Shown in pieces: positions 1 through 58,955 of a DNA stretch of 64,000 nt. The DNA is from Callorhinchus milii (taxonomy: Eukaryota): the NCBI RefSeq assembly GCF_018977255.1, contig NW_024704742.1, positions 13,208,001 to 13,272,000 on the forward strand, given 5' to 3'. The translations under genes were made by a program, and so were the position numbers. Under the pieces are notes generated by a model. The model was not told the origin of the DNA. It ran no database searches and was given only the letters and a program-made list of their open reading frames with translations. How positions within the stretch are numbered: position 1 is the stretch's first letter; each line of letters starts with the position of its first letter.

Positions 1-112
1 TTAGTCGTGTGGAGTAAAGAAACTTGCCCAAGGTTTCACCCCGCCAGGAATCGAACCCAGGTCTTTTGCCCACGAGGTGAGTGCCCTAACAACTGAGCTA
101 CAGGACGCCACA
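1..112 (-). mobile_element. tRNA-derived SINE, 5' head (partial)
   Basis: Reverse complement of the SINE head at 3194 (cctgtagctcag...gggttcgattcc...cttgggcaagttt). Confidence 0.8.
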
Positions 113-656
113 TATTTTTGTTGCATTTTTTGCCGTTTTTGTATGTTAACATTTGTTTAGATTTTTCACGTACTTTCTGTTCATTTTTTCACGTATATTC
201 TGTGAAGGGCACCCAGGTCACATGACCCAGCCCAATTCACGTGACCCAACCCAGGTCACACGACTATGCCCCACGTCACTTGACTACACCTCGGTCACTT
301 GAGCACACACTCGGGTCACCTGACTGCATTCCGAGATCACGCCACTACATCCAGGATCATGTGGCATTGCACCCAGATCACGTGACCCGTTCCAGGACGC
401 ATGGTCCCACCCAGGTCATATCCCCACATCACCTGACTGCGCCCATGTCACATGAACCCGCCCCAGGCTAGATGTGCCATTCCAAGGTGCTAGCGCTAAA
501 CTCTATCCTAACCTTAACCCCTGACGCCTAACCCTTACCTCAATAGTTTCACTCGACATCTTTACAGGAATTCCATGAAACCCTATTTTGGCGCATATTT
601 ATGGAAAAATCGTATTAAATCTGATCACTCCACATTTGTACCTTAAACCACTTGAA
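113..656. repeat. Composite repeat module 1: T-rich tract, ~19-20 bp GTCACGTGAC minisatellite, degenerate CCCTAA repeats, ~100-bp AT-rich unit
   Basis: Same ordered blocks recur at 1130-1957 and 11150-12262. Confidence 0.8.
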
Positions 657-1125
657 TCCCCCCCACTTGCCCAGCTCCACTGGCTGCCCATCCCTCAGAG
701 AATAGAATTCAAACACCTCTTCCTCACTTTCAAGGCCCTCCACAACCTTGCATCCTCCCGTATCTCTGACCTGCTGACCTCCTATCAATCAGTCCACTCG
801 CTTAGCAGGCTCCGGCCTGCTCCATGTATCCCGCCCGACCCTCCCTACCATCGGCGGCCAGGCTTTCAGTGGCTCTGCCTCCACACTTTGGAACTGCATC
901 TCATAATCCCTTTGTCTTGCTCTCTCTTCATGCCAACTTCAAGGCATGACTCAAGACCCTCCTTTTCGACTGTGCTTCAGCCTCCTTCCTATACCCTCTG
1001 CGCTCCCTCATTCCAACCCTGCCCCCACCCACCCCCATGCTCAGGTCTGATCCCCGACTGTTCAGCGCCTTGGGATGAACTCCCGACGTGAAACCCACAT
1101 GATAAATGTAACTTTGTTGCTGTTG
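657..1125 (+). mobile_element. L2 LINE, 3' fragment
   Basis: PLAQLHWLPIPQRIEFK (L2 ORF2 C-terminus) and an L2 tail cagcgccttgggatgaactcccgacgtgaaa...(ttg)n. Confidence 0.85.
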
Positions 1126-1129
1126 TACA

Positions 1130-1957
1130 AACTCATATCAAATCTCCACATTTGGAGTAAATTAAACATTAAAACACTTGAAATTTTATTTCACTTGACA
1201 TTTTTATGGAAATTTCATGAAAAGCTATTTCCGTGCATGTTTGTAGAAAAATCTTATCAAATTTTTACAGAAATTCAATCATTTGTAACATATTTCTGTT
1301 GCATTTTTTGGCGTTTTTGTGTGTTAACATTTGTTTGAGTTTTTCGTGCATTTTCTCTTCAACATTCCTTTTTTTAAATGTTTTTGGTATTTTTTTCCTG
1401 ATCATTTTCTCATGTATATTCTGTGAAGTGCACCCCAGGTCACATGACCCAATCTGGGTTATGTAACCGCAAACCCAGGTCACGTGGCGCAGTCCAGGTC
1501 ACGTGACAGAACCCCCAGGTGCAGATCGCCTGACCCGCACCCCAAGCCACGTGGCCCAGTCCTGGTCACATGACTGCATCCGGGTTACATGATCCCGCGT
1601 CGGGTCATGTGGCCCAGTCCAGGACATGTGTGCACATCTAGGTAACATGATCCCGCCCAGGTCACGCAATTACACCCCAGGTCACGTGACTGTACCTGGG
1701 GTGTAATCATGATCACATCCCACGTTACCTCACCACATCCCCGGGTTACCTGAAAGAAACCGAGGTCACGTGATCCCTCCCAGGTCTTGTAACCAAATCC
1801 CCACATCATCTGACTGCACTCAGGTCACGGGACCCCATCACCTAAACCCTAACCCTCACCCTAACTTTAATCCCGAGCCCTAATCCCTAACCCCCTCACC
1901 CTAACTTGAATAATTTCACTTGACATTTTTACAGGAATTCCATGAAACTCCTATTTA
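1130..1957. repeat. Composite repeat module 2
   Basis: GGTCAC[AG]TGAC array at ~1435-1835, CCCTAA-like block at 1841-1908, AT-rich units on both sides. Confidence 0.8.
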
Positions 1958-16754: not shown

Positions 16755-18530
16755 TGATTCTCACTGCGAGAAAATGCTGGACTTCCTCGAGTCCAAAATC
16801 GAGCGAATCCGCTCAGCTGCCACTGCCCTCCCAACTTCCACCCCCTCCCTACCCCCACCCCACACAATTACCCATCTGACAATTACCCATCCCTTCTTCC
16901 ACACCTTTGAACCTGTCACCCCCTCCTCTGTCTTCACCACCGTAACCTTCATGAAGCCCACCACCTACTCCCTGGACCCCATCTCCACCCCTCTCCTTAA
17001 ATCCCAGCTCCACTTCTTGCCCTACTCGCTGACATCATTAACACTCCCTGTCATTTGGCACTGTTCCTTCCCCCCTCAAAACAGCCATTATAACCCCCAT
17101 CTTGAAGAAATCTTCCCTTGACCCATCACAGCTACCTAGCTACTGGCCCATCTCAAACCTCCCTTTTCTGTCTAAGGTCCTTGAGAGAGCCATTGTCTCC
17201 CAACTTCGTTCTTTCCTCTCCTCCCACTCCCTCCATGAACCCCTCCAATTAGGTTTCTGTCCTGCCCACAGGACGGAAACTGCTTTGGTCAAGGTCACAA
17301 ACAACATCCTGACCATGTGTGACCAGGGCTCCCTCTGCCTCCTCGACCTCTCCGCCGACTTTGACACCATGGACCACTCAATCCTCCTCCACCGCCTCTC
17401 CTCCCAACTCAACCTTCAAGGTTCTGTCCTTCACTAGTTCAGGTCCTACCTTTCACCGCCTCCACTTGGTCACAGCCAATGGCTTCTCCTCCAGCCCCCG
17501 CACCGTCTCTCATGCGGTGTTCCTCAGGGCTCTATCCTCGGTCCCCTCCTCTTCACCCTCTACACGCTCCCTTGGTGACAACATCTGCAGACATGGGGTA
17601 AATTTCCACATGTATGGGGATGACACCCAACTCTACCTCTCTGCCTCCACCCTGAACTCCAGGACCACTGGCATCCTGACCGATGCCTGTCTAACATCAA
17701 GTCCTGGATGAGGGCCAACTTTCCCCAACTCAACGTCAGCAAGACTGAGGCCCTCCTGATTGGCTCACGCCAGCGCCTCCGCACCTCAGGCGCTGGCAGC
17801 ATCAGCCTCCACAGCTGCACACTCAACCTCACTAAGCCAGTCAGGAACCTGTGTGTCTTGTTTGACCCTGAACTGTCATTTCTCCCCCACATCCGCGCCA
17901 TGACCAGCACTGCCTACCACCATCTCCACAGTATTGCCCGACTCTGCCTCACTCCTCAGGCTGCCGAAACCCTCACCCACGCATCCTCATCAGCCTTCCC
18001 AACTCTTCCCTTCACAAGCTGCAGATCATCCAAAACTCTGCAGCCTGTGTACTCTCACGCACCAGCCTCTGCGACACCATCACTCCCACCCTCGCCCAAC
18101 TCCACTGGCTCCCCATCCCCCAGAGGATCAAGTTCAAGATCCTCGTCCTCACCTTTAAGGCCATCCATGGCCTCGCCCCCTCCTACCTCTCTGACTCCCT
18201 ACCAACCTGCCCGTTCCCTCCGTTCAGTGGGCTCCGGCCTGCTCCATGTCTCCCGCCCGACCCGCCCTACCATCGGTGGCCGGGCTTTCAGCCTCTCTGG
18301 TACTCCATCATATGGTCCCTTCGCCTCGCTTCCTCCCTTGCCTCCTTCAAGGCCGGTCTCAAGACCCTTCTCTTCGATTGTGCTTTTAGTTGCCTTCCCA
18401 CCTCTGCCTTCCCTCCCCTCTACCCCACCCCTCCCCCATACTCGGACCCCGACACCTGACTGTTCAGTGCTTTGGGACGTCCTCCCGACGTGAAAGACGC
18501 TCTATAAATGTCATTTTGTTGTTTGTTGTG
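16755..18530 (+). mobile_element. L2 LINE (5'-truncated, decayed)
   Basis: [63 protein letters not shown]2 tail at 18465-18530. Confidence 0.92.
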
Positions 18531-27100: not shown

Positions 27101-30100
27101 TTTTAAAATGAGGACTTTGAAAGGACAAAGCAAAATGACCACTATCATTGTAATTTACAACCACGTTGCTTTTACAATCACACTCAAAATGGCAGGTTTT
27201 GTTTTCAAACTCCTAAAAAAAATCAGCTGAGTGAGAACATTTTGTAAAGCGTAACTAATCAATTAAAGGCACAATAACTGTCAAAAATCCGCCATTTAGC
27301 AAAACATAGTTTTGCAGGAACTCACCATTCCCTGCCACGGTGGTGGTGGACCAATGCTGTGATGAAATTCCCTCATATAATCATTGTAGGACTGTGAATT
27401 AAAGATGTTTTTGCAGATTGAATCCAGGTTTTGAAAAGTATTGACAAGCAATAATATGAACACTTCTACAATTCCAATGCTTCAAAGATTGATAGGAAGT
27501 TACTCACTCCATTTAAAAACACATCCCGTCGAACACCAGAAAATCGTCTGTTGGGAGAAAAGGTTTGGAAATACATTGAAACCATTCAAATGTTCTTTGC
27601 AAGGAAAGTAAAACTAATACGAACATGTGACATCAATTTAAAGAACCTACCTCTCTACTTCTTGGTACCGTGGATCCTTCATGTATCCTGTTCAAACATG
27701 AACACATTAACAAGCGCTGTATTGCAGAACTATCATTACAAATAGGAAGCTGTCCCATTAAAACAAGGCCAAATAGGCCTTATTCAGCAATACAAAAAGC
27801 ATTCAAATTTCCTTTGACAACCTGCAAAGATTTATAGTGCACTTGAAGTAAATAACGTGACATCATCCTTCAGTTCTGCAATGGCAAGTGTAACATTACC
27901 TTCCTTTTAAATTAAGGTGTTTCCCTATGGTGGCTATTTTCAATATTTTGATTTAACAGCTAGTGTTCATATCCTCAGCAGATACTAATCTGGGAATCAA
28001 AGTCCAACACCACGAGGGAACCACGTTAACAGTAGAGTTCTTTTACCTAGGCCACTACAATAAAAAAAATGTATTTCATCAAATGCTGTTCAGAAGGTTC
28101 AACTCATTTAATCTCATTCTTACAGAATATCCACCCTACTGTTTTCTCATTTCTTTCAATGAGTCCTGCATAATGGCCTCAACCAACCAAGCTGTCAATT
28201 GCCCTTCATAATTCTGAACTTGTGCTGTTAACCTGGGGTATTTGATATTTTTGTTCTGGGGTAATGTTTCTTTTGGAATCTTATACATTCATTCTCACAG
28301 ACACTGCTTTCAAGCCTAACTAGTTTAGCAAGTCATCATTAGACCTCAGCCCTCTAACCCTGGGGATGAATCTCGCTGCTGTCCTTTACACTGCCTGTTG
28401 TACCTAAGCAGCCCTCTTTTGTTGCATTGGCCAGGACTATATATACATTTCTTAGCAGGGAACTATGAAAAGATGTACAATGTTTGGTACATTCCATTTT
28501 TAAAAAGCTAATTTATGGTAGAAACAATGTTGGGAGGGAAATGTTCACAATAAACATTTCCACGAATGATCCAGCTTTCATCACTTAACCTGCACCTTCA
28601 CCCAAACCTGCAAATATAATTTCCAAATCAGATTTCCCCAAATTTTCCCCAAATAGTTTTCTTGTCCATAGGTTGAAAAACAAATTTACCCAATAACACT
28701 TTGAAATATAGATTCCCAAATATTTATTTTTCCTATATTTATCATATCACAAATGCTTTCTAGTGAACATGACATAACTCACAAAAGTCAGTCACAATAA
28801 GTTTATAACGGTCTCCTCAATTTATCAGCTATATTTATCAGCCCATTTTTCATAGCACAAAGCTATACAGACAAGAAGGTTGCAGATTTGAACTCTGTGA
28901 TATGTAAACTAACTAATCTTGGGCCAGAGTGGCAGTAAGGAAGTTGGAATTGACTTCAGCACCCTTGCTTTGGGAAGACAGAAATAAACATTGGCTCCTA
29001 CTCCATCGCTGCCTAGCGATTAAATTCCCTGGCTGGATGACCCACATGTTAAGGACATCGTTTTCAATTAGGATGAATCCTTTCCTTGCATTGTCAAGCA
29101 GTATCCAAACAAAGGATCACATATAAATAATTTGCCACTTAGTAAGAGCTTGGAGGGCAATAGAATGTTGATAGAATAAACCGGCAGGATCCTTTTTAAA
29201 AAAAAAATCTATTACTTTTAATGGGAACTACACGGAGCACAGGAGACTTCAAAAATCTACACTGCCACGTGAATCTCTCTTCCCACGTGAAATGCATGTT
29301 CCTGAATGACCCCGGTCAGTAGATATTTTTAATCAAATTCATACCGTCAGCCTGTAGCTGTTAATTTTTACAGGTTGAATCAGCTAACCAATGTATTGAG
29401 TGAACTCATCCTAATACTTTCAACAGATTCTAGAATTGGGTACAGAATTGAAAACCAATCATGGTATGGCAGTTAAATGGCAAGAGAACAAAGATTGGTG
29501 ATAAAAGAATCCTCAGGTGCTACAATAGCATCTTTATAAGGTTAATATGTATCTCGTAGGGTGTGTTCACAGCTAAGCACATAAAACAGTCCACCTGCCA
29601 AATTTTAAAAAATAAAGAATGTTGGAAAAGCTAGAATATTAATTTAAAATTTCTGGGTAAACTAAATCTGGAACATTCTTTCCTCAGTACAAGCAGTATA
29701 AATTCAAAAAGTGAGGGTGGTCAATCCATATCCCTTTTGCTAATTTACTATAATAGCTAGATAGGAAAACTGACTTTTTTTTGCCAATGCTGGTCACAAC
29801 AGCATTTCTGAAACGACTTATGTCCCAAGTACTGCAAGTGAATGTTTCATGGTAGTAGTATATTTGAATGGTCTTATGTTTATCACAACTCATGCATCCT
29901 GTACACACAATGCTGTAATCTCAAGGTATTTGCTTTCCTATCACTCACCTTTATACTGCCTACAGTTGCTCAACATTTTCCATCAGTTTTCAATGATTAT
30001 TGCTGGCCATGAATGCTTAAAAGTATTATTCCACAGCAGTAAACAGGAAACATGCACAGTGGGATACATTTGCACTTACCTAAACATTCCATTCAGTATG

Positions 30101-33100
30101 AGGTGTACTTTTTCAACAAGAAAATTGAGGATTCCATGTAGCAATTTAAAAGGGAAGCCTGTGCAAGTCTAAAGAGACTCACAGCTGCAACTACACATAC
30201 CCAGATATACTTGATTGGGTCTGAGATAATGATCATGTTTTTGTACATCAAAATGTCAATATGCTACAAGATAATGACCTGGTCTTTGTGAGAATTCTGG
30301 TGGGTAGTCAATCCTTGGTCTCTTTCTGGTGTTATATGTGTCATAATCTTCAGCTCGACGCCTACATAAATTAGGTAAACAGAATCATTATGGAAACAAC
30401 GTGATAAATTCAGCTAAAAAAACGCCAAAGGAAAGCAAACACTGTTAAAAAATGCATAAGGCAGCAATCGGGAAATGCAAAAATTGGTATTTAGGTTTTT
30501 TTTACCATAAAACATAGTTTGTGAATTTGATAAGATAAATGTTCATACTCTGACCATAATCTACTTCTCATTTATTATGTGTCAATTACCAATTTTACGA
30601 TTAGTTTAATAAATTCCAAATAAAGAGTGATTATGATCAGCAATTCACAAATGCTAACTGTGCAGAAACATCAGATCTTTCACGTTAAAGATCCTTCAAA
30701 GTAAACAGATAAAAAAGTTATGACCAACTGTTAAAAGACAAGAAGTTTTGAGAAACAGATTGCATTTCCTGACTGCTTTCTTCAAAAAATATATAATTTT
30801 ACTGTATGTTACAGGAACAGAAAGCAGATTTACAAAAAACATTTTTCACTACATGGCAACAAAAATGTAAATTACCATGTGAATTCCAAGAAATTAAACA
30901 TCTTAGATTTTTCAAATTAAGAAATAAAGTTCCCTTGGCCACTGAACATTTCTGAATTTTCAAATATTTTGTACTTTTGACTCAATTATCATTCAAATAA
31001 CTATCCCTATAAAGTGGAAGAGAATGTTAAAATCATAGAAATGTTACAGAAACAAGCGTTTTTAAGATTTGCACTGGTGCTTTTCCTCCACAATGTACCT
31101 AGTGTAATCCCACTCTCCTACTTGCTCCTAATTCATTTAAATTATTTTTCATAATTCCCTGTAACTTTATGGACTGATTCAGAAATAATTGTGGCAAAGA
31201 ATTGCACATTTTAATCACCCTATGTGTCTGCCTTTCAATTCTTTTTGGATATCTTAAATTTGCACCTGCTAATTATTGACTAAGTCAGCAGGAAATCTAT
31301 TATTATTCCGGCCCACAGTAGTGGCCAAACTGTGGGCCGGAAATGATCCAAGGGACTGTCAAAAAGTGCCCCCCGTCCCACCCCGGAATAGTCGCACCAG
31401 TTTAAGTGAGTCAGTGTTCGATCGGTAGTGTCAAATCAAGAACATTTATTTTGTTGACTGACCATAAAGGTTAGTCATCACTGATTTAGCCTTCATAACG
31501 TTGAAGACATCAGTGATCACCATTAATATTCTCACTGAGTGAAAACAGCCCTTCGTCACCTCTATAGAATGAAACCCACATTTCTGGCAACAGTCTACTT
31601 ACCCTAGAATCTAAGATGTATATTTGCTATTGTGTTCATATCATTTACTGGGAATTCATAACTGTGGCCTAAAATATCATACAAGTTCAGCATTACTTGC
31701 TCTTGTATTCTATGACTCCAGGTGAACAAGGTGTCAGTTTTCCTTTTTATTGTCTCATTAAATAAATATATTAAATGTATTAAAATGTATTAAATATGTG
31801 TACAAATGCACCTCCACTCCATTTAAAATCATACTATTTAAGATACATTTCCTTATTCTTTCTATCAAAATGTTTCAACACTGAATTATATCTGCCAACT
31901 ATCTGCCAGCCTGCCATGTCTTCCTGCAATCTTTCACAATTCTAATCACATTTGTTCCCCCCACCCAATTTATGCTTTCAGCAAACTGACAATTGTTCCT
32001 TCCAAAGATCATTAATGTATGTAGTAAAAAAAAGAAGCCTCAATACAGACGCCTGCGGATCAATCGCTACATTATCTCAGTCAGAGAAACTATCTTTTAA
32101 CTCTTTTCCTTCGTGCTCTGCTACCATCTCTCTATCAATGTGGTCACAATCCCCTTAATTTCATGTGTCAATCTTTGTCACAAGTCTCTTGTGTGGTACC
32201 TTATTTTTTGAAAATCACATGCAATGAATTTCCTTATTCTATCCTCCCATTATTTCTTTAAATAATTCTGTAAACTTGGTCATACTAAAGAGCATACGAG
32301 ACTCAACTTTTATTTTATTCTTTGTTTTTTAAATTTCAGATTGATCTAATCTGGTTTTCACTATAAAGTGCCAGGATATAATCCCATTTTCAATATTCTT
32401 TTTCCTAAAATATATTCCCTTTGCATCCTTTCAGTTTCCAGATTTCTGATTGTTACCAAACTAATTTCTACTTGCCAATTTTTCTTTCATTAAACTCTAG
32501 AAAGGCCCCTTTTACCTGGTGTTATTCCATAGCTAACAATTCAAATTACAAATATAATTTTGTACAAACTTTGCTTTAAACGTTAGCTAAATTTGCCTCA
32601 TTTTTTCTTGCTAAACTGGGTATTGCATTACCAAAGCAATAATGAAAACCTGGAAATGACCAACCAAAGTTATAACTATAGTCACATATTACAGTGTTAA
32701 AGTAGAACATAGACTAATTTACCTTTAGTGAGCAATTTAAATTCAAATTCCTATGGTTACAAAACATAAAAGTAAACCTCAATTTGAAAATCTTTTTGAG
32801 AGCCTCGATAGTCCAAAAACAGCAGGTTAAAAAGTGTACTGATGTTGGGTATATGTATACTGAAGTACTTTTTTCCAGCTTTCTGTTACATACTTATGCA
32901 TTTAAAATAAATCAGCAAAAAAAGCTTTTAGGGTGGGAAATATTCCATCATTCTGCATGAATTCTAGCTACTGACTCAGAGGTCCAAGGAGTTACTGTGA
33001 ATGTCAGATTTACAGACAAGAGTTTGCACTTATTTGCATAAGTGAGCTAGCAAACCACAGGATAAAAACAGAAAAGAAGGCAAATTTATAGGCAATATAT

Positions 33101-36100
33101 ATTAGTTTTGTAAACTGAGTTGAATTAAACCCAGTTGGACTCATAAAAACCTATGCAATAACAACAAGCAGCTGAACAAACTATATGCTGGATAATTCAC
33201 CTAGTTTAATTTTTTAAGAATCAAAGGATAAATTCTGTTCCACAATTATTTTGAAAATCAAATTAGCTTAAATAAAAGTAAAATTGTACCAGCACAGAAA
33301 CATGCAAAAAGTGTGGATTTTCCTCACCCATTTATGAAAAACAAAGCAAAGGGCGACTACAGCATATAAAATTCTGGTTAAAGTAGGAACATACCGCTTC
33401 TTGTAGTTGATTTTTGACCACGCAACGAAGGTTTTAATATGACAGTAAAGTTCATAAAGCAGTCCCAACTAATGACTTATGATGTGTGAGCCACAAACAT
33501 AAAGGGAGGGCCTGGCAGGCTGAGAAGAGCTGTTGTGGTAGCAATGCTATTGCAGTCCAGTGCAAAAAATAAACTCCATTCACAAAGACTTTTAAAATAG
33601 CACAGTGAAACCCCTTGGCTCAAAACTTCAAAAGACAGCTGGCCGCACAGTCCGTAATAGCCACAAAGAGAGGGACACTGCCAGGTTTCCTCCTACCTAA
33701 TCGACAGTCCACAACATCAATGAAATGGGCCACTGTTGGATTTTTTTCCTACCTACCACAGGTGCTTTTCCACAAAAGGAAACATTTGTCAAAGGTTGCA
33801 TCCCAGTAAACCAGATCAATCCATAGTCCTTTGACAGAGTAGAGGGTATTGAAAGACTTAAATCTGGCGTTTGGAAGTTGGCTACAAGCAAAAGCACTAA
33901 GCAGAGTGGTTACATCAGTTCTTTGAATTTCTCCACTTTTTGGAATGCGTTAACACCCCTTTTTCCTCCCAGGATCAGGAGGGAACCGTATAAAGTTCAC
34001 AAGCAGTGCTCAGTGAGGTGGCTTCAAACTGTAAACGTCCAGAGGCACTGCGGACATCTAGGAGATCGTACAGACTCAGCAACATCCACTCTCTGGTTTG
34101 TTGCCAGGTCTCCAAGGGTCATCGATTTTTCCCTTGCAAAACAACCTAACCACGTGGATCCTTTCAGAACCTCAGCAGCTTGACGGAAATGTATTCACTG
34201 CGTCTAATTTTTTNAAGGATATTTTTCAATGGGGTTACGCATCACGGTGACCAGGACGTAGCACCAAGCGAGAGTCCCATATTAATGCTCTTCTTGATCA
34301 AGTTAAAATAATTTAACACATTTTCCCCCAAATGAGGTGCCATCTTCTGCAAAATTATTAGACACTGATCCTTTTTAAAGTCCCAGATCACATTATTATC
34401 CATAGGAATATACCTGAAAGAAAAGGCTTTCACAAGATATCATAAAAGCAAGTTACCAATAAAAAATAAACACTTGTTTGTTTACACTCCACCTACCCCC
34501 ACCAAGATTTCATTACTTCTACACAACTCCTCAAACTCCCGACCACCCCGATATCTGTACAAAGGATGTACCACTCCATATATTCAAGTAATTGAAATAA
34601 TAAAATTACCCCACTTTATTACAGTTCATTCTGCACATTTAAGCTTTAGCCAGGTGTATGGCTCCACTCTTTTACTCTTGAAGACGAAAAGCCACTGCTG
34701 TGCAATCCTCATTGAAGCCACAGACTAGTCCATGCAGCTTGACATGAGGATATTAAAATGATCTTCTGCATCGTTGGTACCATGCATGGTGAATCTTACT
34801 GCTGCATCATGTTACTCCAATACAAGTGCCTACTATCAGTCCAAAGAACGTTTCTAACCTTCCCACTTCCCGGACTGGATCACGTCGAGAAGGTCGTCCT
34901 CTTGATCGGGGCTGTGAATGCCCCCTTCTCTTGTGCCGCATTTTATGAATGAACTGATACAAGTCAATGCTTTCATCTGGTGGAAACAGAAGGCAAAGTT
35001 GTGTACCACAATCGGGTTCAATTTCCTAGAGAAAAAAAAGAACATTTTGTTTATTTTGTTGAAGCAGGCGAGCAATTGCAAAACTGCACTTAAGTGTCAA
35101 AAGACTTCATACCTGCCCATCCCTTCCAATCTTAACAGGTTTATTTTCATTCCATAGATTCACAAGATGGCTCGTTTTTGTGAATGGTAATTCGCGCCTG
35201 GGGGAAAAGAAATTTATGAATAAAAAAAAGATTTGGTTGCTTCAATACATTAGCAAATTGAACTCCTTCTAATGCACCTTTACTTTAAGCTCAGTCTCGG
35301 CTGTCCCTTCACTGCAGTGCTGGGGGAGTGCCACATGGTCGAAGGTGCTGTCCTTCAAATAAAATGCTAAACTGGGGTCCCGTTTGGTTGTTCGGGTGAT
35401 AAAGACCTCATGACGTTATTTGAAAATAAGTTAATTTCCCAGAAAAAAGATTATTAACTTCAAGGTTGTTTGTGGGATATTGTGTGTAAACTGGTTGCCG
35501 TATTCCTCTACAAATATAATCACTACATTTAACAGAAAAGCGAATCACTTTGAGATGCATCAACATAAATCGCTTTATTATTTTACAACAGCTTCACATT
35601 CATGCAGGGATTTTTATATTACTAAGTTTGATTCAAATGTATCCCAAAGTAAGGTTCTCCCAACTCCTTGGATCGCCCCTGGTGTTCCAGTCCAGAAGGC
35701 AAGTAACACTAGGATCTGCCAATATGAATTTTCACCTGGCCACTACACAACAGAACCTATACATAGAGAATGGATAGCCTTGACTCAAATCTTTCCACTC
35801 AAGCTCACCTTGTAAACAGAAATTTCTTATACACCCGTTTATAACAAGATTATGAATTTAATTTTGAGTGTATTTCATTACTCGTACACATTACACACCC
35901 AATAATACCTGCAAATCCAGTCAATTTTGAAGACTCCGCCTAACATTTTGGCATTCATTCCTGCAGGTAACACCCAATGAATAGGGGATCCTCCATGGTG
36001 TGATTCCGATGAAAGTCTAGCAAATCCTAAAGAATAAAGCATACATTTATTCCCGGGCGGGTGAAAGTTTCCTTACTCCACACGCCTTTGTTTACCTAGC

Positions 36101-42100: not shown

Positions 42101-45100
42101 GCACACAAAATTGTTCCATACATACATCCATCTCCAGGTTTAGTTTTTAACGGTAATAAATATCCTGCATTTATACAATAATTGTATCAAAATTCTGCTA
42201 AATCAAAGTACTAAAAAAAAGAAGTTGAAATGGACCAATTTATTGGACCAGAATATCGGATTAACTTTTTTNAATTAAAAAAGTCTGCTGTGTTTTACCC
42301 TAGCAATAAATGAGCAGGATCACTGAAAAAGCTTTATTTTCTCAAATAGGTTTCCTTCATTTTCCAATTATTTGGGTATTTCATTCAACCTCGCCCTCCC
42401 ATCAACAATTCCCAATCTAAAACAACACAATGACACATGTCCCAGTTCTACATTCAGCATGACGTACCACCATTCATGTCAAATATTGTAGAAAAAAGGT
42501 TTAACATAAAAACGAAGACCTGAAGTGAAGTTCCTATAGGAAAGTAAAGCAAGGCACTCTCATCAATGATAGAAAAAAGATACAAAAATTGGGCTACAGC
42601 AATGATAAAGTAAGAAAGCAAGAGCAAAGCCTTTAAATGAATGTGAATTCCTCACACAAGTATGAGGTTTATTCTGATGTCCATGGAGGATAGGAATGAA
42701 AAATTGCAATGTGGGTTATGAAATTTTTATTTGGAAATCAGATTAAAAAGCCTATATGCACAAACTTACAACTCAGAAACTAAAGAATCACAAGCTCATG
42801 TATATGTATTTTTGTACAGGAGCTTAAAAATAAAAGGGGAAAAATTAGTTCTGCTGGTATTCCTGAGTTTCTTTGCAGCAGTTTACATCAAAGACCTTAG
42901 CTGATAATCATCAAAAAAAATCAATGTCTTAATATTTAAATAAGACCAATAATACAAATACCATCCAGCTAACTTTTCCATGCCATCAAATTCCCCTTCT
43001 TCAAGAATTGTGCAGAGATACTGCACTTGAAGTGACACTGAACAGGTGAATAAGTAAATATGTTACAATATTTTGACAATCTTAATAGATTTGGATTAAT
43101 CAGTAAAGTACCATTTGCAGCAAGAAAGAAATGCAGTTTTATAATCTGATTAGAGAAAATACTACTTTGTATTTGATTACTACCACCTAACTTGTGTTCA
43201 GTTTTGCTCACTTGCTTCAAGCAGATTGGTTTGACATACATCAACAAACATCACCACAACATTGAGGTAAACTACATAACTAAGGCCAAATACGATAATT
43301 ATTTCTAACACATCCTATTTCCCTTGTTATCATGGCATGTAATGGGCATTGCAAGTGGTTTGATTTCATGAACTGGCAAGATAGAAAATTCCACTCTTTA
43401 TGACACTTAATTCCCAATTACAGAGCCAGTGCTTTTGTATCACCACCTCCATCTCACCGACAAAGAACATTTCCCTTTCAAAACACAGATAGGAATAAAT
43501 TGCTATGATAGAAGGAATGGTGTCCATCTTAAAACTAGGCAACCATAAAACATTCCCTATCGGTATACAGGAGGGAGTTAGAGAGAACAATGTCACCTTA
43601 ACAGAAGATAACACAGCCGTTGTAACAAGATGGTTTTGAAAGGAAAGGAAATAGCTCCAGGATACACTCACACTGAACAAAATTCCTGAGAAATGAACTT
43701 TTGGGGGTGGGGGCGGGGGAGAACATATACCCTGCATCTACAAGAGACTTCTGCATTCATGAAACTATAATCAATGAGGGGATTTAAAGAGTGCGGATTC
43801 TTATCGCAGTCGAATTAATAGTCTATGAAATGTACATATACAAGACAGTTCAGAAACAAGATAAAGAAAATCATGGAAAAATGTAAATTACCCCTTTCAC
43901 TAACAAGGCATCTTTCAGCTGAAGGCTTAAAAGTTGTAGAGCATTACTTTTTCAATATTGTAAAGTCTAAAAGACACAGAACATTCATTTCATTCTGGAC
44001 ATCAAACCCCAAAATGTCAACCTATTGGAGCTGCTTTTCCAGCTGCTTTATCTGCTCAAGCACACTTATTCTGACCCCTAAACTTATTGTTTCCATACCT
44101 TTACGAACTGCCCGCACAGATGATGACAGCTTCTCATGTTTCTTCTCTGATCCTGCATTACAGTACACAAATCCCATTAGGCCCTTGCTGTTTAATCTCC
44201 AAGCACGACAAGTTCCAAATGAAACACAAAACATACCTGCATATGAATCGGACGCAGAGCTTTCACTCCTATCAAACACAATTGGAGAAATGTCTCTAGA
44301 TCGCTTTTTCTTCTCCTTTTTATGTTTCTCATCGTCTGAAGAAAATTTAATTTGGAACAATTCCATTTAATTATTCTTTAAGAATCATTCGAGACTGCAG
44401 TATGAATGATAGGGGTTGAAAATTCCACTGACATTAGGTCTGGGACGTGTTCATTATGTCAGGTCAATTGTCAATAGACCAGTAGAAAGGTATAAGACAA
44501 ATTAAACAGCAGTGTTGTAATGACCAATATTTGTCACTATAGGCAATTAGAGCACTTACACAGCATGCTGGCAGCTTTCAGTGGATGGAATGAAATACAG
44601 TTGAATCCTGATAAATAAACTTTAGTTGGTTTGAAGCAAAATTACTTGATAAAAGCAAGTTTAAAACAGAATGTGCAAATCTTTAGAAAACCATCAATTT
44701 AAATCTTTCATTCAGCAGTTCAATCTAAAACAAAAACAAACTACTTAACAAAAAGTTTAGACAATAACTAATCTTTTCTTTTATATTGTCCCAATACAGC
44801 ACCAAAAGTGTCAATAGCACTGCAAACGGGTATCCGTGGCTCAACTATCATCTTGAATGAAAGTAAAATGTTAAGGCAGAACTTTGCCCATATGCACCCA
44901 AACATATTGGCTTCTAACTCACGTCAATTATTCCAACAGAAATGTTAGCTTCTTTCAATAAGTGTAAATAAAAAGGAAGCTCACTGCACCCACTTTTTTT
45001 TTTAAAAAAGCTGAAAAGTGGTTTTCTCTCATGTGCTTCAAAGGCTCCCCCAGTGAGAAGTGTTTGGTAACAGATTGTGGGAAGAAAGGCTGAAAGCCCG

Positions 45101-54100: not shown

Positions 54101-56066
54101 GCCACTTAGCGAGTACCGGCCTCACGTCCCCTCCTCAATCCATCCCACCATTGGCTGGCAGGTTTCAGCAATATTTGCCAATTAAGCAGAGAAAATAAAA
54201 TGAATCACTACTAGAGCTAATGTCTACCCAATCCAGGTTGTAGAGATGGAGTTACATGAAATAACCAAATTGACATCACCTCCAGCAGATCCAAACCTGA
54301 AGACTGTAATCAAAAATTTCTTCCAAGTTTTTTTAAAAAAATTATATCCTAGAAGTCCATAAAAAGTTTAGTTGCTTAAATTTGTCTTTGAACTGCCTTA
54401 ATGAACTTGCACTTATCCCATCCACCCTGGGTTTCAGATGAGAATGTCACAAAAAANCATTAAAGGTCTCACATAACGCAGCATTAAGCCATTATTCCAG
54501 TTTCACCAGACCTGTGCTGATAGTTGAAATCAGCCAGGACAGAGTTGGGTCGCATATAGGCCTTTGGGTCCTCGAGTTGCGGAAAGGAAAAAACAAAGAG
54601 GTTCAGATAAAGAAGGCTTTTGGACCAATTTGATTTAACTCTTACAGAATACCCAGTCTGTTATTATTTATATTAAAGCATTGAGCCTGCTTAAAAGACT
54701 CCAGTGGACTGGTCTCAACCACACTTCCTGCTTAGCCTTTCCAGATATTAATTACCATCAATGTAAAGAAATATTTCCTGCAATCTGTCCTCAAATTACC
54801 TTTCACAACATTCAATCTGTGTTTTCTTTAGTTCAGCCAAGTATCTGAAAATCCTCCATGTTTAATCTCCAAAAACAGTATACTGAATGAATGCATAACC
54901 ATTTTTTACCTGGGATAGATGTTGACCAAGACGCTATAGAAATTCACAGCACAGATTGAGCTCAAAGTTCCAACATGGTGTTTGAACCCAGAACCTTTTA
55001 ACTCAGAGGCAAGAGTGCTAACAACTGAGCCAATATGACACTGGTTTCCATTCGCTTGGAATACAATACGCACAATCCTTATCGAACTCTAGAGGGTGTT
55101 AGGCACAGGATGGGGGAATCCCAGAATGTGTGTTGTGACTCTACTGGAGCTTAAAAAGCTAAAACTGCAACCTACCATTGTGAACAAATGTATCAAGCTT
55201 CCCACTGCTTATCCAACTAGGGAAATGCCAAATAACCCATCAGGGATTTGGGTTGCAGGGCTAATTTTGGGGGGGTCTGCCAAGCATCTGACAGATGCAG
55301 AAACACATCACCACACACACCATTTGGAAATACAGAGTTCCAAAGATGTGAAGACTTTCCTCTTTGATCATGCTTCCCGCCACCCTCCCCCCTAATCAAT
55401 CAATGACTGTTTGTGGGACACTTCTGTGCTCAATTGGCTGCCGCGTTTCATCCACAAAATACGGTCAATTCACTTTGTGATATATTCTGTGAAGCCTTTT
55501 GAGATGTCGCAACAACATGATATATGAACTATATGAACTGCAGGGAAAATTATGATTATATTATTATTATTATTACCTCTGTCCCAAGGAGCCGTCACTT
55601 CTGGTTTACTCCCCTGCCCACCCCGGGGCTCTAATAATAATAATCCTGGCATTTAATAAAGCGCCTCATCACGTCTTTGAGATGTCTCAAAGCGCTTCAC
55701 AGTATTGACTGTAAAGTGAATTGCCTGTGTATTGTAGGCAAAATATAAACCGGGGTCAGGGTTTATGTCCCTGATGACAGACAGACAGACAGACAGACAG
55801 ACAGAGACCAAGCCCCCCACCCCGGCTCCCCCCTCTGGCCCTGTGTCTCTGTCTGTGCCTCACAGGGGGGAGGAGTTTGACACTGAGCGGCCCAGGCCCT
55901 GACCTAGGCCTAGACACAGTGTCAGGCGGACTCTGGTCTCGGAGCCGGAGAGGTGAGCAAGACCCGGGGCGGGGGGGAGGCACAATGACTGGCCGGCCGG
56001 GTGGCGGGTGACCGGGTGGGTGGTGTGACGGTCGCTCTCACCTTTCTCCTCGCGGTTCTCCGCCAT
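20978..56066 (-). CDS. YTHDC1: YTH domain-containing protein 1 (nuclear m6A reader), whole spliced gene span, 17 coding exons, 731 aa
   Basis: Hand-assembled exons total 2196 nt with consistent phases and GT-AG introns. The protein runs [34 protein letters not shown]... through an acidic tract, the YTH domain ([36 protein letters not shown]), a Pro/His-rich region and an RE/RD-rich tail ending ERGRYRR*. Confidence 0.97.
22530..22865 (+). mobile_element. Young full-length tRNA-derived SINE
   Basis: Nearly identical to 3194-3534. Confidence 0.9.
22946..23602 (+). mobile_element. CR1 LINE, 3' fragment
   Basis: CR1 ORF2 end and tail ggggctgaatggcctactactcctgtttctatgtttc. Confidence 0.85.
23919..24053 (-). 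CDS. YTHDC1: YTHDC1 exon 16 ([45 protein letters not shown])
   Basis: Acceptor tacag|CCA, donor GTG|GTATGT; 135 nt. Confidence 0.96.
26345..26711 (-). mobile_element. tRNA-derived SINE, older copy, intron 15
   Basis: Full head-to-tail homology with the SINE family. Confidence 0.85.
26826..27222. repeat. Imperfect inverted repeat (MITE-like), ~100-bp arms
   Basis: gtttgaaaacaaaac...tttgagtgtgatt...gatagtggtcatttt...ttcaaaatcct versus aggactttgaa...aaaatgaccactatc...aatcacactcaaa...gttttgttttcaaac. Confidence 0.75.
27326..27391 (-). CDS. YTHDC1: YTHDC1 exon 15 ([22 protein letters not shown])
   Basis: Acceptor cacag|TCC, donor ATG|GTGAGT; 66 nt. Confidence 0.95.
27508..27547 (-). CDS. YTHDC1: YTHDC1 exon 14 ([14 protein letters not shown])
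   Basis: Acceptor caacag|A, donor GGA|GTGAGT; 40 nt. Confidence 0.94.
27651..27687 (-). CDS. YTHDC1: YTHDC1 exon 13 ([12 protein letters not shown])
   Basis: Acceptor aacag|GA, donor GAG|GTAGGT; 37 nt. Confidence 0.93.
30279..30361 (-). CDS. YTHDC1: YTHDC1 exon 12 ([28 protein letters not shown])
   Basis: Acceptor tgtag|G, donor CAG|GTCATT; 83 nt. Confidence 0.93.
31030..32230 (-). mobile_element. Highly decayed CR1-like LINE in distal intron 11
   Basis: atcatagaaatg tail and remnants such as ttgtgtggtacctta...ttgaaaatc resembling CR1 RT. Confidence 0.5.
34859..35025 (-). CDS. YTHDC1: YTHDC1 exon 11 ([55 protein letters not shown])
   Basis: Acceptor tctag|GAA, donor AAG|GTTAGA; 167 nt. 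Confidence 0.96.
35113..35197 (-). CDS. YTHDC1: YTHDC1 exon 10 ([29 protein letters not shown])
   Basis: Acceptor cccag|G, donor CAG|GTATGA; 85 nt. Confidence 0.96.
35290..35545 (+). mobile_element. Deu-domain SINE remnant (SacSINE/AmnSINE-like)
   Basis: tgcagtgctgggggagtgcc...ggtgctgtccttc...taaactggggtcccg...aaagacctcatg resembles the Deu core as recalled. Confidence 0.55.
35909..36026 (-). CDS. YTHDC1: YTHDC1 exon 9 ([39 protein letters not shown])
   Basis: Acceptor tttag|GA, donor CAG|GTATTA; 118 nt; second cage Trp and Leu present. Confidence 0.97.
36060..36325 (+). mobile_element. tRNA-SINE, 5'-truncated, intron 8
   Basis: aagtttccttactccacacg...gcgcaattggctgc...tgtgaagcac. Confidence 0.75.
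37141..37249 (-). CDS. YTHDC1: YTHDC1 exon 8 ([36 protein letters not shown])
   Basis: Acceptor cctag|GGT, donor CAGG|GTGAGA; 109 nt; includes the first aromatic-cage Trp. Confidence 0.97.
37955..38475 (+). mobile_element. L2 3' fragment, intron 7
   Basis: [13 protein letters not shown]2 tail. Confidence 0.85.
39975..40069 (-). CDS. YTHDC1: YTHDC1 exon 7 ([32 protein letters not shown]), YTH domain start
   Basis: Acceptor tacag|AT, donor AAG|GTAATT; 95 nt. Confidence 0.97.
40625..40738 (-). mobile_element. SINE 3' fragment, intron 6
   Basis: (aat)n ccttgcatttgatatagcgc... tail. Confidence 0.8.
44099..44152 (-). CDS. YTHDC1: YTHDC1 exon 6 ([18 protein letters not shown]), 54-nt cassette-type exon
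   Basis: Acceptor tgcag|GA, donor AAAG|GTATGG; symmetric phase 1-1. Confidence 0.95.
44237..44335 (-). CDS. YTHDC1: YTHDC1 exon 5 ([33 protein letters not shown])
   Basis: Acceptor ttcag|AC, donor GCAG|GTATGT; 99 nt. Confidence 0.95.
46722..47151 (-). CDS. YTHDC1: YTHDC1 exon 4 (Glu-rich region, [21 protein letters not shown])
   Basis: Acceptor ggcag|AAG, donor TCAG|GTATAT; 430 nt; overlaps ORF 46693..47118. Confidence 0.92.
47568..47902 (-). CDS. YTHDC1: YTHDC1 exon 3 (ASKRKNEK...STTQNESE)
   Basis: Acceptor caacag|CA, donor GAG|GTTTAC; 335 nt, phase-compatible with exons 2 and 4; divergent low-complexity region. Confidence 0.85.
49430..49531 (-). CDS. YTHDC1: YTHDC1 exon 2 ([34 protein letters not shown])
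   Basis: Acceptor ttttag|AT, donor AAG|GTAAGT; 102 nt. Confidence 0.95.
50300..50800 (+). mobile_element. Old L2 3' fragment, intron 1
   Basis: [11 protein letters not shown]...[12 protein letters not shown]. Confidence 0.65.
51720..53880 (-). mobile_element. CR1 LINE fragments (ORF1 Zn-finger/esterase region and RT), same family as 3671-9335
   Basis: [51 protein letters not shown]...HVCRKC; 53365-53880 closely matches 8816-9320. Confidence 0.88.
55400..55745. mobile_element. Two SINE 3' fragments in inverted (tail-to-tail) orientation
   Basis: 55400-55575 (+) and 55632-55745 (-). Confidence 0.7.
55776..55804. repeat. (GACA)n microsatellite
   Basis: Directly visible. Confidence 0.9.
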
Positions 56067-56310
56067 CCCTCTGACTCGCCGCACACTCTGCTCCAGCAAA
56101 ATGGCGCCGCCCGCGATCCCACAGGCCTTCCCGCCCGTCGCGCGTCACAATGCGGACCCGTCGCGACGTCACAATGGGCGGTGGCGGCCACGTACGTCAC
56201 AATGGGCCTGCCCCCCCTCAACCCCACCTCCCCGGTGTTTGCTGGTCACGTGGTGGCTCTGACGTGGTGTGTGTGTGGAGCGTTCCATCCTCTCCGTCCA
56301 CACAGCGCTC
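55850..56310 (-). promoter_or_regulatory. YTHDC1 CpG-island promoter and 5' UTR, with a YY1-type motif (GGCGCCATTTT on minus, ~56098-56108) and CRE/ATF-like and E-box motifs
   Basis: GC- and CpG-rich island around the start codon; AAAATGGCG; three CGTCACAATG copies; GTCACGTGG (~56246); TGACGTGG (~56260). Confidence 0.8.
56042..56066 (-). CDS. YTHDC1: YTHDC1 coding exon 1 (MAENREEK-D)
   Basis: ATG at 56066 inside a CpG island; donor AAAG|GTGAGA; 25 nt. Confidence 0.92.
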
Positions 56311-56457
56311 ACTCAACACATTCACACACATACTTCAGAATTTTGTAAACCAAATCAGGGGACATATACTTAAAAAAAGGGAACTCACCACTGTTCCTGG
56401 TTCTGGCAGTACTGGAGCAGCTTGTTTCACTGATGAGTGTATGTGTTTCAGAATGTT

Positions 56458-56752
56458 ATAGTCCTTGCATTTGATATAACGCTTCTCATGTCTTCGAGAC
56501 GTCTCAAAGCACTTCACAGAATAGACTGTAAAGTGAGTTGACTGTGTATTTGTGGGCGAAACACAGCAGCCAATTGCGCACAGCAATGTCCCCACAAACA
56601 GTCGTGGATTGAAATGACCAATTTATTGTGTGTTTTGTCTTGAGGGATTGTTATCAGTCATGTGGAGTAAGGAAACTTGCCCAAGGTTTGGCCCTGCCGG
56701 GAATTGAACACAGGTCTCTCATTTGCAAAGCCACTGAGCTACAGGACTCCAC
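56458..56752 (-). mobile_element. tRNA-derived SINE upstream of the YTHDC1 promoter
   Basis: Head-to-tail homology with the SINE family. Confidence 0.85.
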
Positions 56753-56967
56753 CCCTTATACAATCACAATACATACGCCACTCGTTTGTGCACACATTCA
56801 CACATTTACTCACACATTTACACATACACATTCATGGATACATACTAAAATACACTCATTTCATGCATACTGATACATTCACTCTCATATACACTTGAAT
56901 ATATATATGTACTCATTCACACACACACATGCATACAATACATAAATCTATACTCACTCACATACAT

Positions 56968-58955
56968 GGATAATACGATTGAACTTGACATTAGGTTTGA
57001 GAGGGAGAAGGGAAAGTCCCAAACCAAGGTTTTAAATTTAAGTAAGGCAAACTTCGATGGGTTGAGAAATAAATTGGCCACAGTAAACTGGGCTGAACTG
57101 TTAGTGGGTAAACCTACAAATAAACAATGGGAAATATTCAAAAAAGTACAATACAATAGAATACAATACAGAACAAGTACATAACCCTAAAATGCAAAAG
57201 CTCCAACTGTGTAGTGAAGCAACCATGGTTGACAAAAGAGGTTAGAGACTGTATCAAGCTAAAAGAAAAGGCTTACTCAAATGCAAGAAAAAGTGGGAAT
57301 GCAGACAACTGGAAGAACTACACAAGGCAACAAAGAGATCCAAAGAAAGTACTAAGAGGAGCAAAAAGGAAATACGAAAAAAACTTGCAAGGGATATTAA
57401 AACCAATCGAAAAAGTTTTTACAAATATATTAAGAGAAAGAGTTGTCAAGGGGAATATGGGCCTGTTAAAGATAGATATAGGTGAGACTATAATGGAAAA
57501 TAAGTAAATGGCTGACGTTAAATAAATACTTTGCTAACGTTTTAACAGTAGAGGATGAATACAAAACACCAGCTGTACAGGGGAACCTAAAAATAAGTCA
57601 AAGTGAAATACTTAGACTTATTAATGTAAATAAAAAAATGGTAATGGGGAAAATAATGAGACTCAAGATAGACAAATCTCCAGGAACTGATAGTTTCTAC
57701 CCCAGGGGGTTAAAGGAAATAGGAGAGGAAATTGCAGATGCATTCGTCATCATTTTCCAAAGCTCACTAGATTTGGGAATTGTGCCCTAAGATTGGAAAA
57801 TTGTGAATGTCACCCTTTTATTTAAGAAGGGAGGCAGGCAGAAACCAGGAAACTACAGACTTGTCAGCTTAAGGTCACTTGTAGGAAAAATACTGGAATC
57901 CATCATCAGGGACAGAGTGACTGAACACTTGGACAGGTATGAACTAGTCAAAGAGAGTTAACATAGGTTTGTGAAGGGTAGGTCGTGTCTGACTAATCCA
58001 GTTGAATTTTTTGAGGAAGTCACTAAAATGGTTGGCCTTTATCTCAAGGGGCCTGAATACAAAGGGGAAGAAATGCTGCTTCAGCTGTATAGATCGTTGG
58101 TCAGACCCCATCTGAAGTACTGCATTCAGTTTTGGGCACCGCACCTGTTTCCAGGCCTTAAAGTGTTAAGTTTAAGGCATGTCCCTACCTCTCCGAACGC
58201 CACACTCCGCAATCCACCACCGGGCGCCTCCACTAAACTGGCATCGGCCTCCTGCTTGTCCCTCGCACCCTCCGCCCCACCATTGGAGGTCGCGCTTTCA
58301 GCCACTACGCCCCAAAACTCTGGAACACTCTCAATCCCTCCGTCATTGTCCCCTTTTTCTCTTTTTTCAAGTCCCACCTGAAAACCTTTCTTTTTGACCG
58401 TGCTTACGGTCACCTTCCACCCCACCCCTGGCTTGGAGTCAGGCTCCGCCGCTGTTAAACACTCTGAGACACTGTGTGGAGGGCGCTATATAAGTGCAAG
58501 TTGTTGTTGTTGTAAGTTATGAGGAAAGGCTGCATAAACTTGGATTGTATTCCCTGGGTTTAGAAGGTTGAGGGGTGATTTAATTGAGGTATTTAAAGTG
58601 ATTTGATAGGGTAGATACAAGAAGCTATTTCCTCTGGTGGGAGAATCCAAAACAAAGGGCATAGTCTTCAAATTAAAACCAGGCCATTTAAGAGTGAAAT
58701 CAGGAAGCATTTTTTCACTTAAAGGGGGTGGTGGGGTAGAAATCTGGAACTCTCTCCACAAAAGGCTGTGGATACTGGATCTATCCACACCTTCAAAAGT
58801 GAAGTTGATAGATTTTTGGTAGATCAGGGTATCAAGGGATATGGGGAAAGAGTGAGAAATTGGAATTGACAGGATTAGTTGAGGTACAGATCAGCCATGA
58901 TCTAATCTAATTGAATGGCGGAAGAGGCTCAAAGGGCTGAATGGCCTACTCTTGT
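56968..58955 (+). mobile_element. CR1 LINE (decayed ORF2 to 3' tail) with nested L2 3' fragment (~58150-58512)
   Basis: VLNLSKANFDGLR, PWLTKEV, KGRSCLTNPVEFFEEVT, LYRSLVRPHLKYCIQFWAP; tail gggctgaatggcctactc. Confidence 0.88.

Follow-up and report, generated by a model that had tools for sequence, protein, structure and literature searches.

The subject of this report is a 64,000-nucleotide (nt) stretch of the genome of the holocephalan Callorhinchus milii (NCBI RefSeq assembly GCF_018977255.1, contig NW_024704742.1, positions 13,208,001 to 13,272,000; hereafter the window, to which coordinates refer unless another sequence is named) and, within it, the gene YTHDC1, which lies on the minus strand and encodes a nuclear reader of N6-methyladenosine (m6A). 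At the start of intron 11 of this gene, the segment 33328-34858 is probably, as judged from its sequence, the cartilaginous-fish orthologue of the alternative exon part that m6A and YTHDC1 govern in mouse, and would serve as an autoregulatory module. The segment carries an excess of the pentamer GGACU that is distinctive both in strand and in position; it adjoins an exon and opens an intron that are orthologous to those of the mouse; it contains two conserved blocks; and proteins that read through into it are present in the databases. A run of GGACU on one strand thus stands at the spot where mouse cells use m6A to produce a dead-end transcript, so that a self-limiting YTHDC1 loop is probably ancient. 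The mechanism itself is already known in mouse; a full-text search of open-access papers and bioRxiv found no account of its likely presence, in the same layout, in a holocephalan, of the deep conservation of the intron start or of an internal acceptor that appears to be common to C. milii and a ray.

The nine GGACU identified by motif scan, which span +17 to +1398 as counted from the 5' splice site, are as follows.

34838..34842, minus strand: GGACU no. 1, at +17
34727..34731, minus strand: GGACU no. 2, at +128
34379..34383, minus strand: GGACU no. 3, at +476
34273..34277, minus strand: GGACU no. 4, at +582
33825..33829, minus strand: GGACU no. 5, at +1030
33706..33710, minus strand: GGACU no. 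6, at +1149
33649..33653, minus strand: GGACU no. 7, at +1206
33554..33558, minus strand: GGACU no. 8, at +1301
33461..33465, minus strand: GGACU no. 9, at +1394

A preliminary description of this DNA had reported nine GGACT on the minus strand where about one was expected, none on the opposite strand and about three sense copies in intron 12, and these counts were borne out. The scan recovered all nine sites; it found no plus-strand GGACT in 33320-34858, the nearest plus-strand matches being at 33137 and 34872; and it counted 3 sense copies in intron 12 (27689-30278) and only one in the remaining 2966 nt of intron 11. Three estimates place the number expected in the 1539-nt region between 0.98 and 1.62. 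Based on the remaining sense strand of the window, 1.06 would be expected (Poisson p 1.8e-6), while 5000 dinucleotide shuffles of the region gave 1.62 +/- 1.22 with a maximum of 7, none of the 5000 reaching 9. The genome background, sampled as 199,997 bases from 20 other 10-kb loci of the same genome, amounts to 0.64 GGACT per kb per strand, or 0.98 for the region, with a maximum of 6 in 3400 sliding windows. GGACT is moreover the sole outlier among the pentamers of the region, the next being GTAGG (5 vs 1.08, p 5e-3), and 9 of the 10 GGAC continue as GGACU, the optimal m6A motif. The bias of nine sense to zero antisense sites has a two-sided binomial probability of 0.004 by our own arithmetic. 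Across the whole window there are 81 GGACT, 52 on the minus and 29 on the plus strand, and any other 1.4-kb span holds at most 4. It may be recorded, as a property of the window, that a minus-strand surplus persists without the nine clustered sites (43 vs 29) and that the total of 81 falls below the shuffle expectation of 105 +/- 10.

The exon that precedes the cluster and the intron that contains it have the following landmarks, some of them obtained by mapping C. milii proteins exactly onto the window.

34859..35025, minus strand: coding exon 11 of YTHDC1, 167 nt, from the exact mapping of proteins P0128 and P0003; encodes the end of the YTH domain and 42 further residues
34853..34861, minus strand: canonical 5' splice site of exon 11, AAG/GUUAGA, with a suboptimal U at +3
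34807..34809, minus strand: in-frame TGA met on read-through, 17 codons past the last full codon of exon 11; P0128 and P0129 have the same C-terminus
33328..34858, minus strand: proposed alternative exon part (poison extension), single-copy, GC-richer than the rest of the intron and carrying all nine GGACU
30362..33327, minus strand: distal, ordinary part of intron 11, AT-rich, with interspersed repeats
30279..30361, minus strand: exon 12, the shared acceptor exon, 83 nt, from protein mapping

That the gene is YTHDC1 and the exon its eleventh, that read-through meets a TGA after 17 codons and beyond the YTH domain, and that the adjoining stretch lacks recognisable transposable elements had likewise been proposed from the letters alone, and all of this agrees with the protein mapping and the genome comparison. 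The 55 residues translated from 34861-35025 match two C. milii YTHDC1 proteins (P0002 and P0003) at 100 % identity and the other 118 proteins listed at 84-96 %, with 96 % identity to ray and shark proteins; the search with this exon peptide placed 233 of 235 candidates at E <= 1e-3, and the best 120 of these are listed. Protein P0128 (UniRef entry V9KDV7) maps exactly as ten collinear pieces from 56066 down to 34810, and since one of these, 44336-44100, is split into two exons in P0003, the exon 34859-35025 is coding exon 11. In P0003, the Pfam YTH domain occupies residues 364-501, and the last residue encoded by exon 11 is 543. Read-through from exon 11 adds R and 16 further residues before the TGA at 34809-34807. 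Intron 11 itself runs from 34858 to 30362 (4497 nt), and its donor scores 6.2, vs 8.6-10.3 for the best sites of the gene, on a frequency matrix that is not a curated one. A single N occurs in the proximal intron, at 34214; others in the window are at 42272 and 54457.

In repeat content and composition, the proximal intron stands apart from the distal intron. The proximal sequence 33320-34800 (1481 nt) has no second copy in the 992-Mb assembly, the sole candidate being itself, and its internal repeats amount to two families of two copies each, 14 and 12 nt long, together with a single short tandem array. An origin of the nine GGACU from tandem or dispersed repeats is ruled out by the single-copy nature of the sequence and by the lack of any repeat family longer than 14 nt. 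The distal intron, at about 31315-31505 and 32005-32137, bears an interspersed repeat with 244 genome-wide candidates, 40 of which were scored, as well as a reverse-transcriptase-like fragment (PQASVL...YINDL). The GC fraction is 0.43-0.455 in the windows covering 33400-34400, falls to 0.315 in the window 33000-33399 and is lower beyond; within the distal intron it is mostly 0.28-0.35, rising to about 0.39-0.42 around the repeat. No Rfam RNA family was found in 30362-34825 at E <= 1, and no sense open reading frame longer than 71 residues was found in the proposed element, so no other known kind of element accounts for the segment.

Two stretches of the segment are conserved in other species.

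34652..34858, minus strand: conserved block A, roughly the initial 200 nt of the intron, recognised from the tails of 22 proteins and from alignments beyond the stop; nucleotide-level conservation among jawed vertebrates, frame-independent
34242..34415, minus strand: conserved block B, a putative internal 3' splice site (AG at 34415-34414, exon start at 34413) followed by a 56-codon open frame that ends at TGA 34244-34242

Block A spans +1 to about +207 and is seen in frog and in mammal-, bird- and squamate-like records, and block B spans +446 to +617 and is seen in the manta ray. For block A, the evidence begins with C. milii itself, as the UniRef entries V9KJL3 (560 residues) and V9KDV7 (588 residues) are spliced through exons 1-11 and have as their C-terminus the exact read-through peptide of intron 11. 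V9KDV7 also contains the translation of the 84-nt in-frame intron that separates coding exons 5 and 6 (44100-44336, minus strand), which gives it 28 residues that are absent from P0003 and P0129; since the same entry runs on into intron 11 as well, V9KDV7 may come from a partly processed transcript. The read-through tail G-R-L-E-T/M-F-F-G-L... is present in 22 of the 220 proteins compared. Its named frog bearers are Xenopus tropicalis, Pyxicephalus adspersus and Staurois parvus (two proteins), and the unnamed tail-bearing records have exon peptides nearest to those of mouse (99.4 %), a colobus monkey (100 %), birds (98.9 %) and a lizard (94.6 %). The GU that opens the intron, taken together with the tail residues R-L-E, would force the donor G-U-U-R-G-A in all the species behind the 22 tails, implying that the weak U at +3 is conserved as well.

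The likeness extends beyond the stop. Bird-like and squamate-like records lack the stop of the tail, and the longer tails of these records correspond to the C. milii intron read in other frames. When degenerate back-translations were aligned against the C. milii intron, the bird-like P0024 scored 28 against 34751-34699 (null 12.0 +/- 1.8, maximum 17.2 of 100), with 27 of 30 fixed columns identical, and the lizard- or squamate-like P0115 scored 23 against 34738-34652 (null 10.7 +/- 1.6, maximum 16.5). Because the similarity crosses the stop and switches frame between species, the constraint appears to act at the level of RNA or DNA and not at that of protein. Block B is known from isoform X3 of the manta ray Mobula birostris (P0156), in which exon 11 is joined to a 53-residue tail that is identical at 37 of its 53 residues to the translation of 34412-34245; the local score of this tail is 165, vs <= 57 elsewhere in six frames, and at the nucleotide level 84 of 91 non-degenerate columns are identical (score 58.5 vs a null of 11.2 +/- 1.7). 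In the C. milii sequence, a polypyrimidine tract and an AG directly precede 34413, and entry at that position leads to a TGA within 57 codons. A protein search with the 56-residue frame 34242-34412 gave 6 candidates, none scoring, which is a weak negative given that only cluster representatives were searched.

The first four GGACU lie within these blocks, and their GGAC is compatible with, or fixed in, other lineages. At no. 1, the F-G-L codons of the 22-protein tail fix G, G and U and are compatible with A and C. At no. 2, GGAC is fixed by W-T codons in the tails of both P0024 and P0115, although these align in different frames. The W-D-L of the manta ray tail fixes G, G and A of no. 3 and is compatible with its C and U, and the G-T of the same tail leaves four of the five columns of no. 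4 fixed and identical, and the fifth free. Beyond the vertebrates, prokaryote genome contigs scanned with the exon-11 peptide yielded 598 pattern matches, none of which was confirmed, and a metagenome locus (L002) that was found with a 24-letter block A pattern was set aside as a chance match, as its likeness is 28 nt long and it has no YTHDC1 exon. A second kind of truncated YTHDC1 occurs in Engystomops, Xenopus tropicalis and Latimeria (P0083, P0099 and P0197), with unrelated short tails after an exon that ends in ...PPPPWQGM; it hints that the gene has a further recurrent read-through site, closer to its 3' end.

The m6A-dependent inclusion of mammalian intron 11 sequence, on which the preliminary description drew, is in print for mouse (PMC8327914, PMC8450095). 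Exon 11 and intron 11 of mouse Ythdc1 are heavily m6A-methylated, and a minor form arises via a downstream 5' splice site (Wei et al. 2021, PMC8327914). In wild type, 20-30 % of the junction reads come from this form; once METTL3 is lost, whether acutely or stably, the share is ~0, and YTHDC1 transcript and protein rise (PMC8327914). As quantified by LeafCutter, METTL3 depletion takes the percent-spliced-in (PSI) value of junction chr5:86828121-86830554 from 0.796 to 0.999 and that of 86829479-86830554 from 0.204 to 0.0007; the tabulated junctions imply a 1358-nt extension in a 2433-nt intron (PMC8327914). The high-confidence mouse m6A peaks are at 86828191-86828351, 86828903-86829153 and 86829235-86829449, equivalent to +70..230, +782..1032 and +1114..1328, and exon 11 starts at 86827954 in the annotated transcript block, which makes it 167 nt long (PMC8327914). 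In the general model drawn from these cells, the upstream donor is repressed by m6A that lies on it or shortly after it, and m6A lies upstream of the downstream donor that is enhanced; GGACU is the commonest motif in the m6A peaks of mouse nascent RNA (PMC8327914). In Mettl3 knockout cells, retention of intron 11 was reduced as assayed by reverse transcription-polymerase chain reaction (RT-PCR; miCLIP2 paper 2021, PMC8450095); the primers map to the same exon peptide and to the intron block seen in P0024. In the cochlea, the same long-donor form, with premature stops, is found in one hair-cell type (PMC12528612).

Candidate signals in C. milii that could terminate the segment, or a transcript within it, are these.

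33322..33330, minus strand: candidate downstream 5' splice site UGG/GUGAGG (+1532), giving an extension of 1531 nt; predicted, score 8.63, the second best of the intron
33389..33397, minus strand: alternative candidate downstream 5' splice site GCG/GUAUGU (+1465), giving an extension of 1464 nt; predicted, score 6.98
34615..34620, minus strand: AAUAAA, a possible intronic polyadenylation signal at +238, from the sequence motif only; AUUAAA is also present at 33438

The events proposed for C. milii would begin with METTL3/METTL14, which would methylate the nine GGACU on the nascent RNA; that writer-family genes are encoded in the genome is clear from MT-A70 (PF05063) matches above cut-off at two loci, on contigs C16 and C1. 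(The locus on C1, at C1:14423263-14424905, shares a contig with YTHDC1 and lies ~1.15 Mb from the window, C1:13208001-13272000.) The YTH domain of YTHDC1 prefers GG(m6A)C, and YTHDC1 protein would bind the methylated sites and thereby disfavour the weak, conserved GUUAGA donor of exon 11. The proximal intron would then be retained, spliced from a donor near 33327 or 33394, or entered via the acceptor at 34413. The resulting forms would meet a stop within 17 or 57 codons and lose the C-terminal third of the protein, and they are predicted to stay in the nucleus, to undergo nonsense-mediated decay or to give rise to a truncated reader protein. In each event, more m6A or more reader would mean less full-length YTHDC1, i.e. 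negative feedback.

A number of observations weigh against this account, beginning with the statistics. Enrichment over shuffled sequence, which the preliminary description had put forward as a check, is clear for the pentamer GGACT and fails for the wider DRACH class, with 27 sense and 31 antisense occurrences vs 32.0 +/- 3.8 in shuffles. In a blind scan that takes in every pentamer and either strand of the window, the GGACT cluster comes 101st among 2046 combinations; the top 20 clustered pentamers are mostly purine- or pyrimidine-rich or dinucleotide-like (AGAGG, GGAGG, ACACA) and come from few loci. The clusters of AGAGG, GGAGG/CCTCC, CCCAG and ACACA that outrank it are at 9696-11079, 16827-18486, 60622-61995, 212-2022 and 55914-57324 of the window, and they probably reflect low-complexity or repeat DNA. 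At the shuffle mean of 1.62, the Poisson tail is ~5e-5 by our own arithmetic, which is only marginal after correction for 1024 pentamers. Given the blind-scan rank and this corrected tail, the statistical case leans on a motif and an intron that had been named beforehand from mouse work. Further points concern the splice sites and the reach of the conservation. The top-scoring donor-like site of intron 11, at 31602, is outside the segment, in the repeat-bearing distal part. Five of the nine GGACU lie in +618..+1531, outside blocks A and B, where a 71-residue frame (33477-33689) had no match among the protein cluster representatives searched, itself a weak test. The origin of the V9K entries in C. 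milii transcriptome or cDNA data is presumed. In the C. milii WTAP gene (C3:56866001-56882000), the intron after the ...KSSQD exon, taken here as orthologous to intron 6 of mouse Wtap, is without a cluster, its ~3.5 kb containing 3 sense GGACT. The internal acceptor of the manta ray is not described for mouse in the portions of the papers used here, and the mouse architecture may not carry over exactly. Lastly, methylation, reader binding, the splice-site switch, transcript fate and feedback are what we infer for C. milii, and the downstream donor is a prediction. The suggestion that the feedback loop is conserved in this lineage gains real support from exon length, from the two conserved blocks, from the read-through proteins and from the mouse-like layout of GGACU, and is qualified by the manta ray acceptor and by a donor that is only predicted.

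Among other explanations, it is rather unlikely that the segment is a conserved alternative exon or retained intron whose methylated GGACU serve some purpose besides splice-site choice, be it the control of retention, decay or export of the extension or of the 3' untranslated region of a polyadenylated short mRNA, or the supply of a functional truncated reader without the C-terminal low-complexity region. The truncated proteins do keep the YTH domain whole (residues 365-502 of 560), the 16-residue tail varies little from chimaera to mammals, the frames that follow 34413 in manta ray and C. milii both stay open for 53-56 codons and reach the same stop, AAUAAA is at hand at +238, and another gene of the m6A machinery, mouse Wtap, uses an alternative last exon (PMC8327914). 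However, the loss of the tail stop in bird- and squamate-like records, with similarity that continues in other frames, points to constraint on the RNA; the manta ray tail departs from the C. milii frame at 16 of its 53 residues and by insertions and deletions, whereas exon 11 is 96 % identical to ray and shark; and in mouse intron 11 the outcome is a switch of splice site and not polyadenylation (PMC8327914).

That the segment is a conserved poison extension in which the GGACU excess exists for something other than m6A, such as an array for another RNA-binding protein or a DNA element of the kind of an intronic enhancer, is improbable. The flat DRACH count would suit such an array, as would the G that follows 5 of the 9 sites (GGACUG). 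A single orientation for all nine sites would, however, be needless in a DNA element; the flanks are varied (T, G, A or C before and G, A, T or C after), which leaves as the shared unit exactly the top m6A pentamer of the mouse; and the orthologous mouse stretch is experimentally m6A-marked (PMC8327914). Chance, or a compositional accident in a repeat-free intron, is very improbable, for while a 1-Gb genome will contain some such clusters and other pentamers cluster more strongly elsewhere in the window, none of the 5000 shuffles reaches 9, the maximum in 3400 genomic windows is 6, GGACT is the sole outlier pentamer in contexts that are non-repetitive, place and motif were predicted from mouse, and sites 2 and 4, at the least, are for the most part fixed elsewhere among the lineages compared.

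With the m6A-governed alternative exon part as the favoured interpretation, it is quite possible, and is put forward here tentatively, that the circuit is ancestral to jawed vertebrates and more than 400 million years old, consisting of the weak GUUAGA donor and a positionally maintained array of GGACU, to which the cartilaginous fishes would have added the acceptor at 34413 and, with it, a second truncated reader with a conserved tail. If true, the loop would date to the origin of jawed vertebrates, and its essential parts, namely the weak donor with U at +3, a GGACU near +17 and a distal group before the second donor, would be readable by comparison as a compact cis-regulatory code for an m6A-directed choice between two 5' splice sites. 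This matters in light of the statement in the mouse paper on m6A and splice-site choice that 'direct causation ... warrants further investigation' (PMC8327914). In the portions of the published papers drawn on, experimental support for m6A feedback on the nuclear reader comes from mouse cells only. A full-text search of open-access papers and bioRxiv found no report of the element outside mammals, and in the same literature no discussion was found of the conserved internal acceptor or of the truncated reader isoforms that stand in annotations.

Among known systems, mouse Ythdc1 is the nearest, being the same gene with a 167-nt exon 11, an intron in the equal position and a stop soon after read-through. 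The alternative part is ~1.4-1.5 kb in both (1358 nt in mouse; the C. milii end is predicted), and the m6A peaks of the one and the GGACU of the other both adjoin the upstream donor and form a group before the downstream donor, which in C. milii is putative. Unlike the mouse case, the C. milii module is known from sequence alone, its downstream donor being predicted; intron 11 is 4497 nt in C. milii vs 2433 nt in mouse; and in a relative, the manta ray, splicing enters at an internal acceptor that corresponds to 34413 and does not figure in the mouse system as described in the portions used here. The m6A-dependent alternative exon parts of mouse Wtap intron 6 and Spen intron 2 (PMC8327914) offer a second comparison. 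The arrangement proposed for C. milii YTHDC1 resembles these in that regulation by m6A near a 5' splice site would act, as with Wtap, on a gene of the m6A machinery.

More distant parallels are also instructive. Lareau et al. (2007, as cited in PMC8327914) are said to have described SR protein genes that are spliced unproductively at elements of high conservation or even ultraconservation. As in those genes, the present proposal involves an RNA-binding regulator, a deeply conserved non-coding stretch, inclusion that leads to a premature stop, and negative autoregulation; unlike in those genes, the proposed signal is an RNA modification that is read by the gene's own product and not the direct binding of unmodified RNA, and the C. 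milii element would be an exon extension or retained part and not a short cassette. Retained-intron feedback also operates between METTL16 and MAT2A, and in Drosophila the splicing of Sxl is influenced via YT521-B, the orthologue of YTHDC1. In both of these, as proposed for C. milii, m6A sites that lie within an intron or close to one determine the ratio of productive to unproductive isoforms of a regulator; MAT2A differs in its writer and in its hairpin motif, and Sxl differs in gene, in lineage and in outcome.

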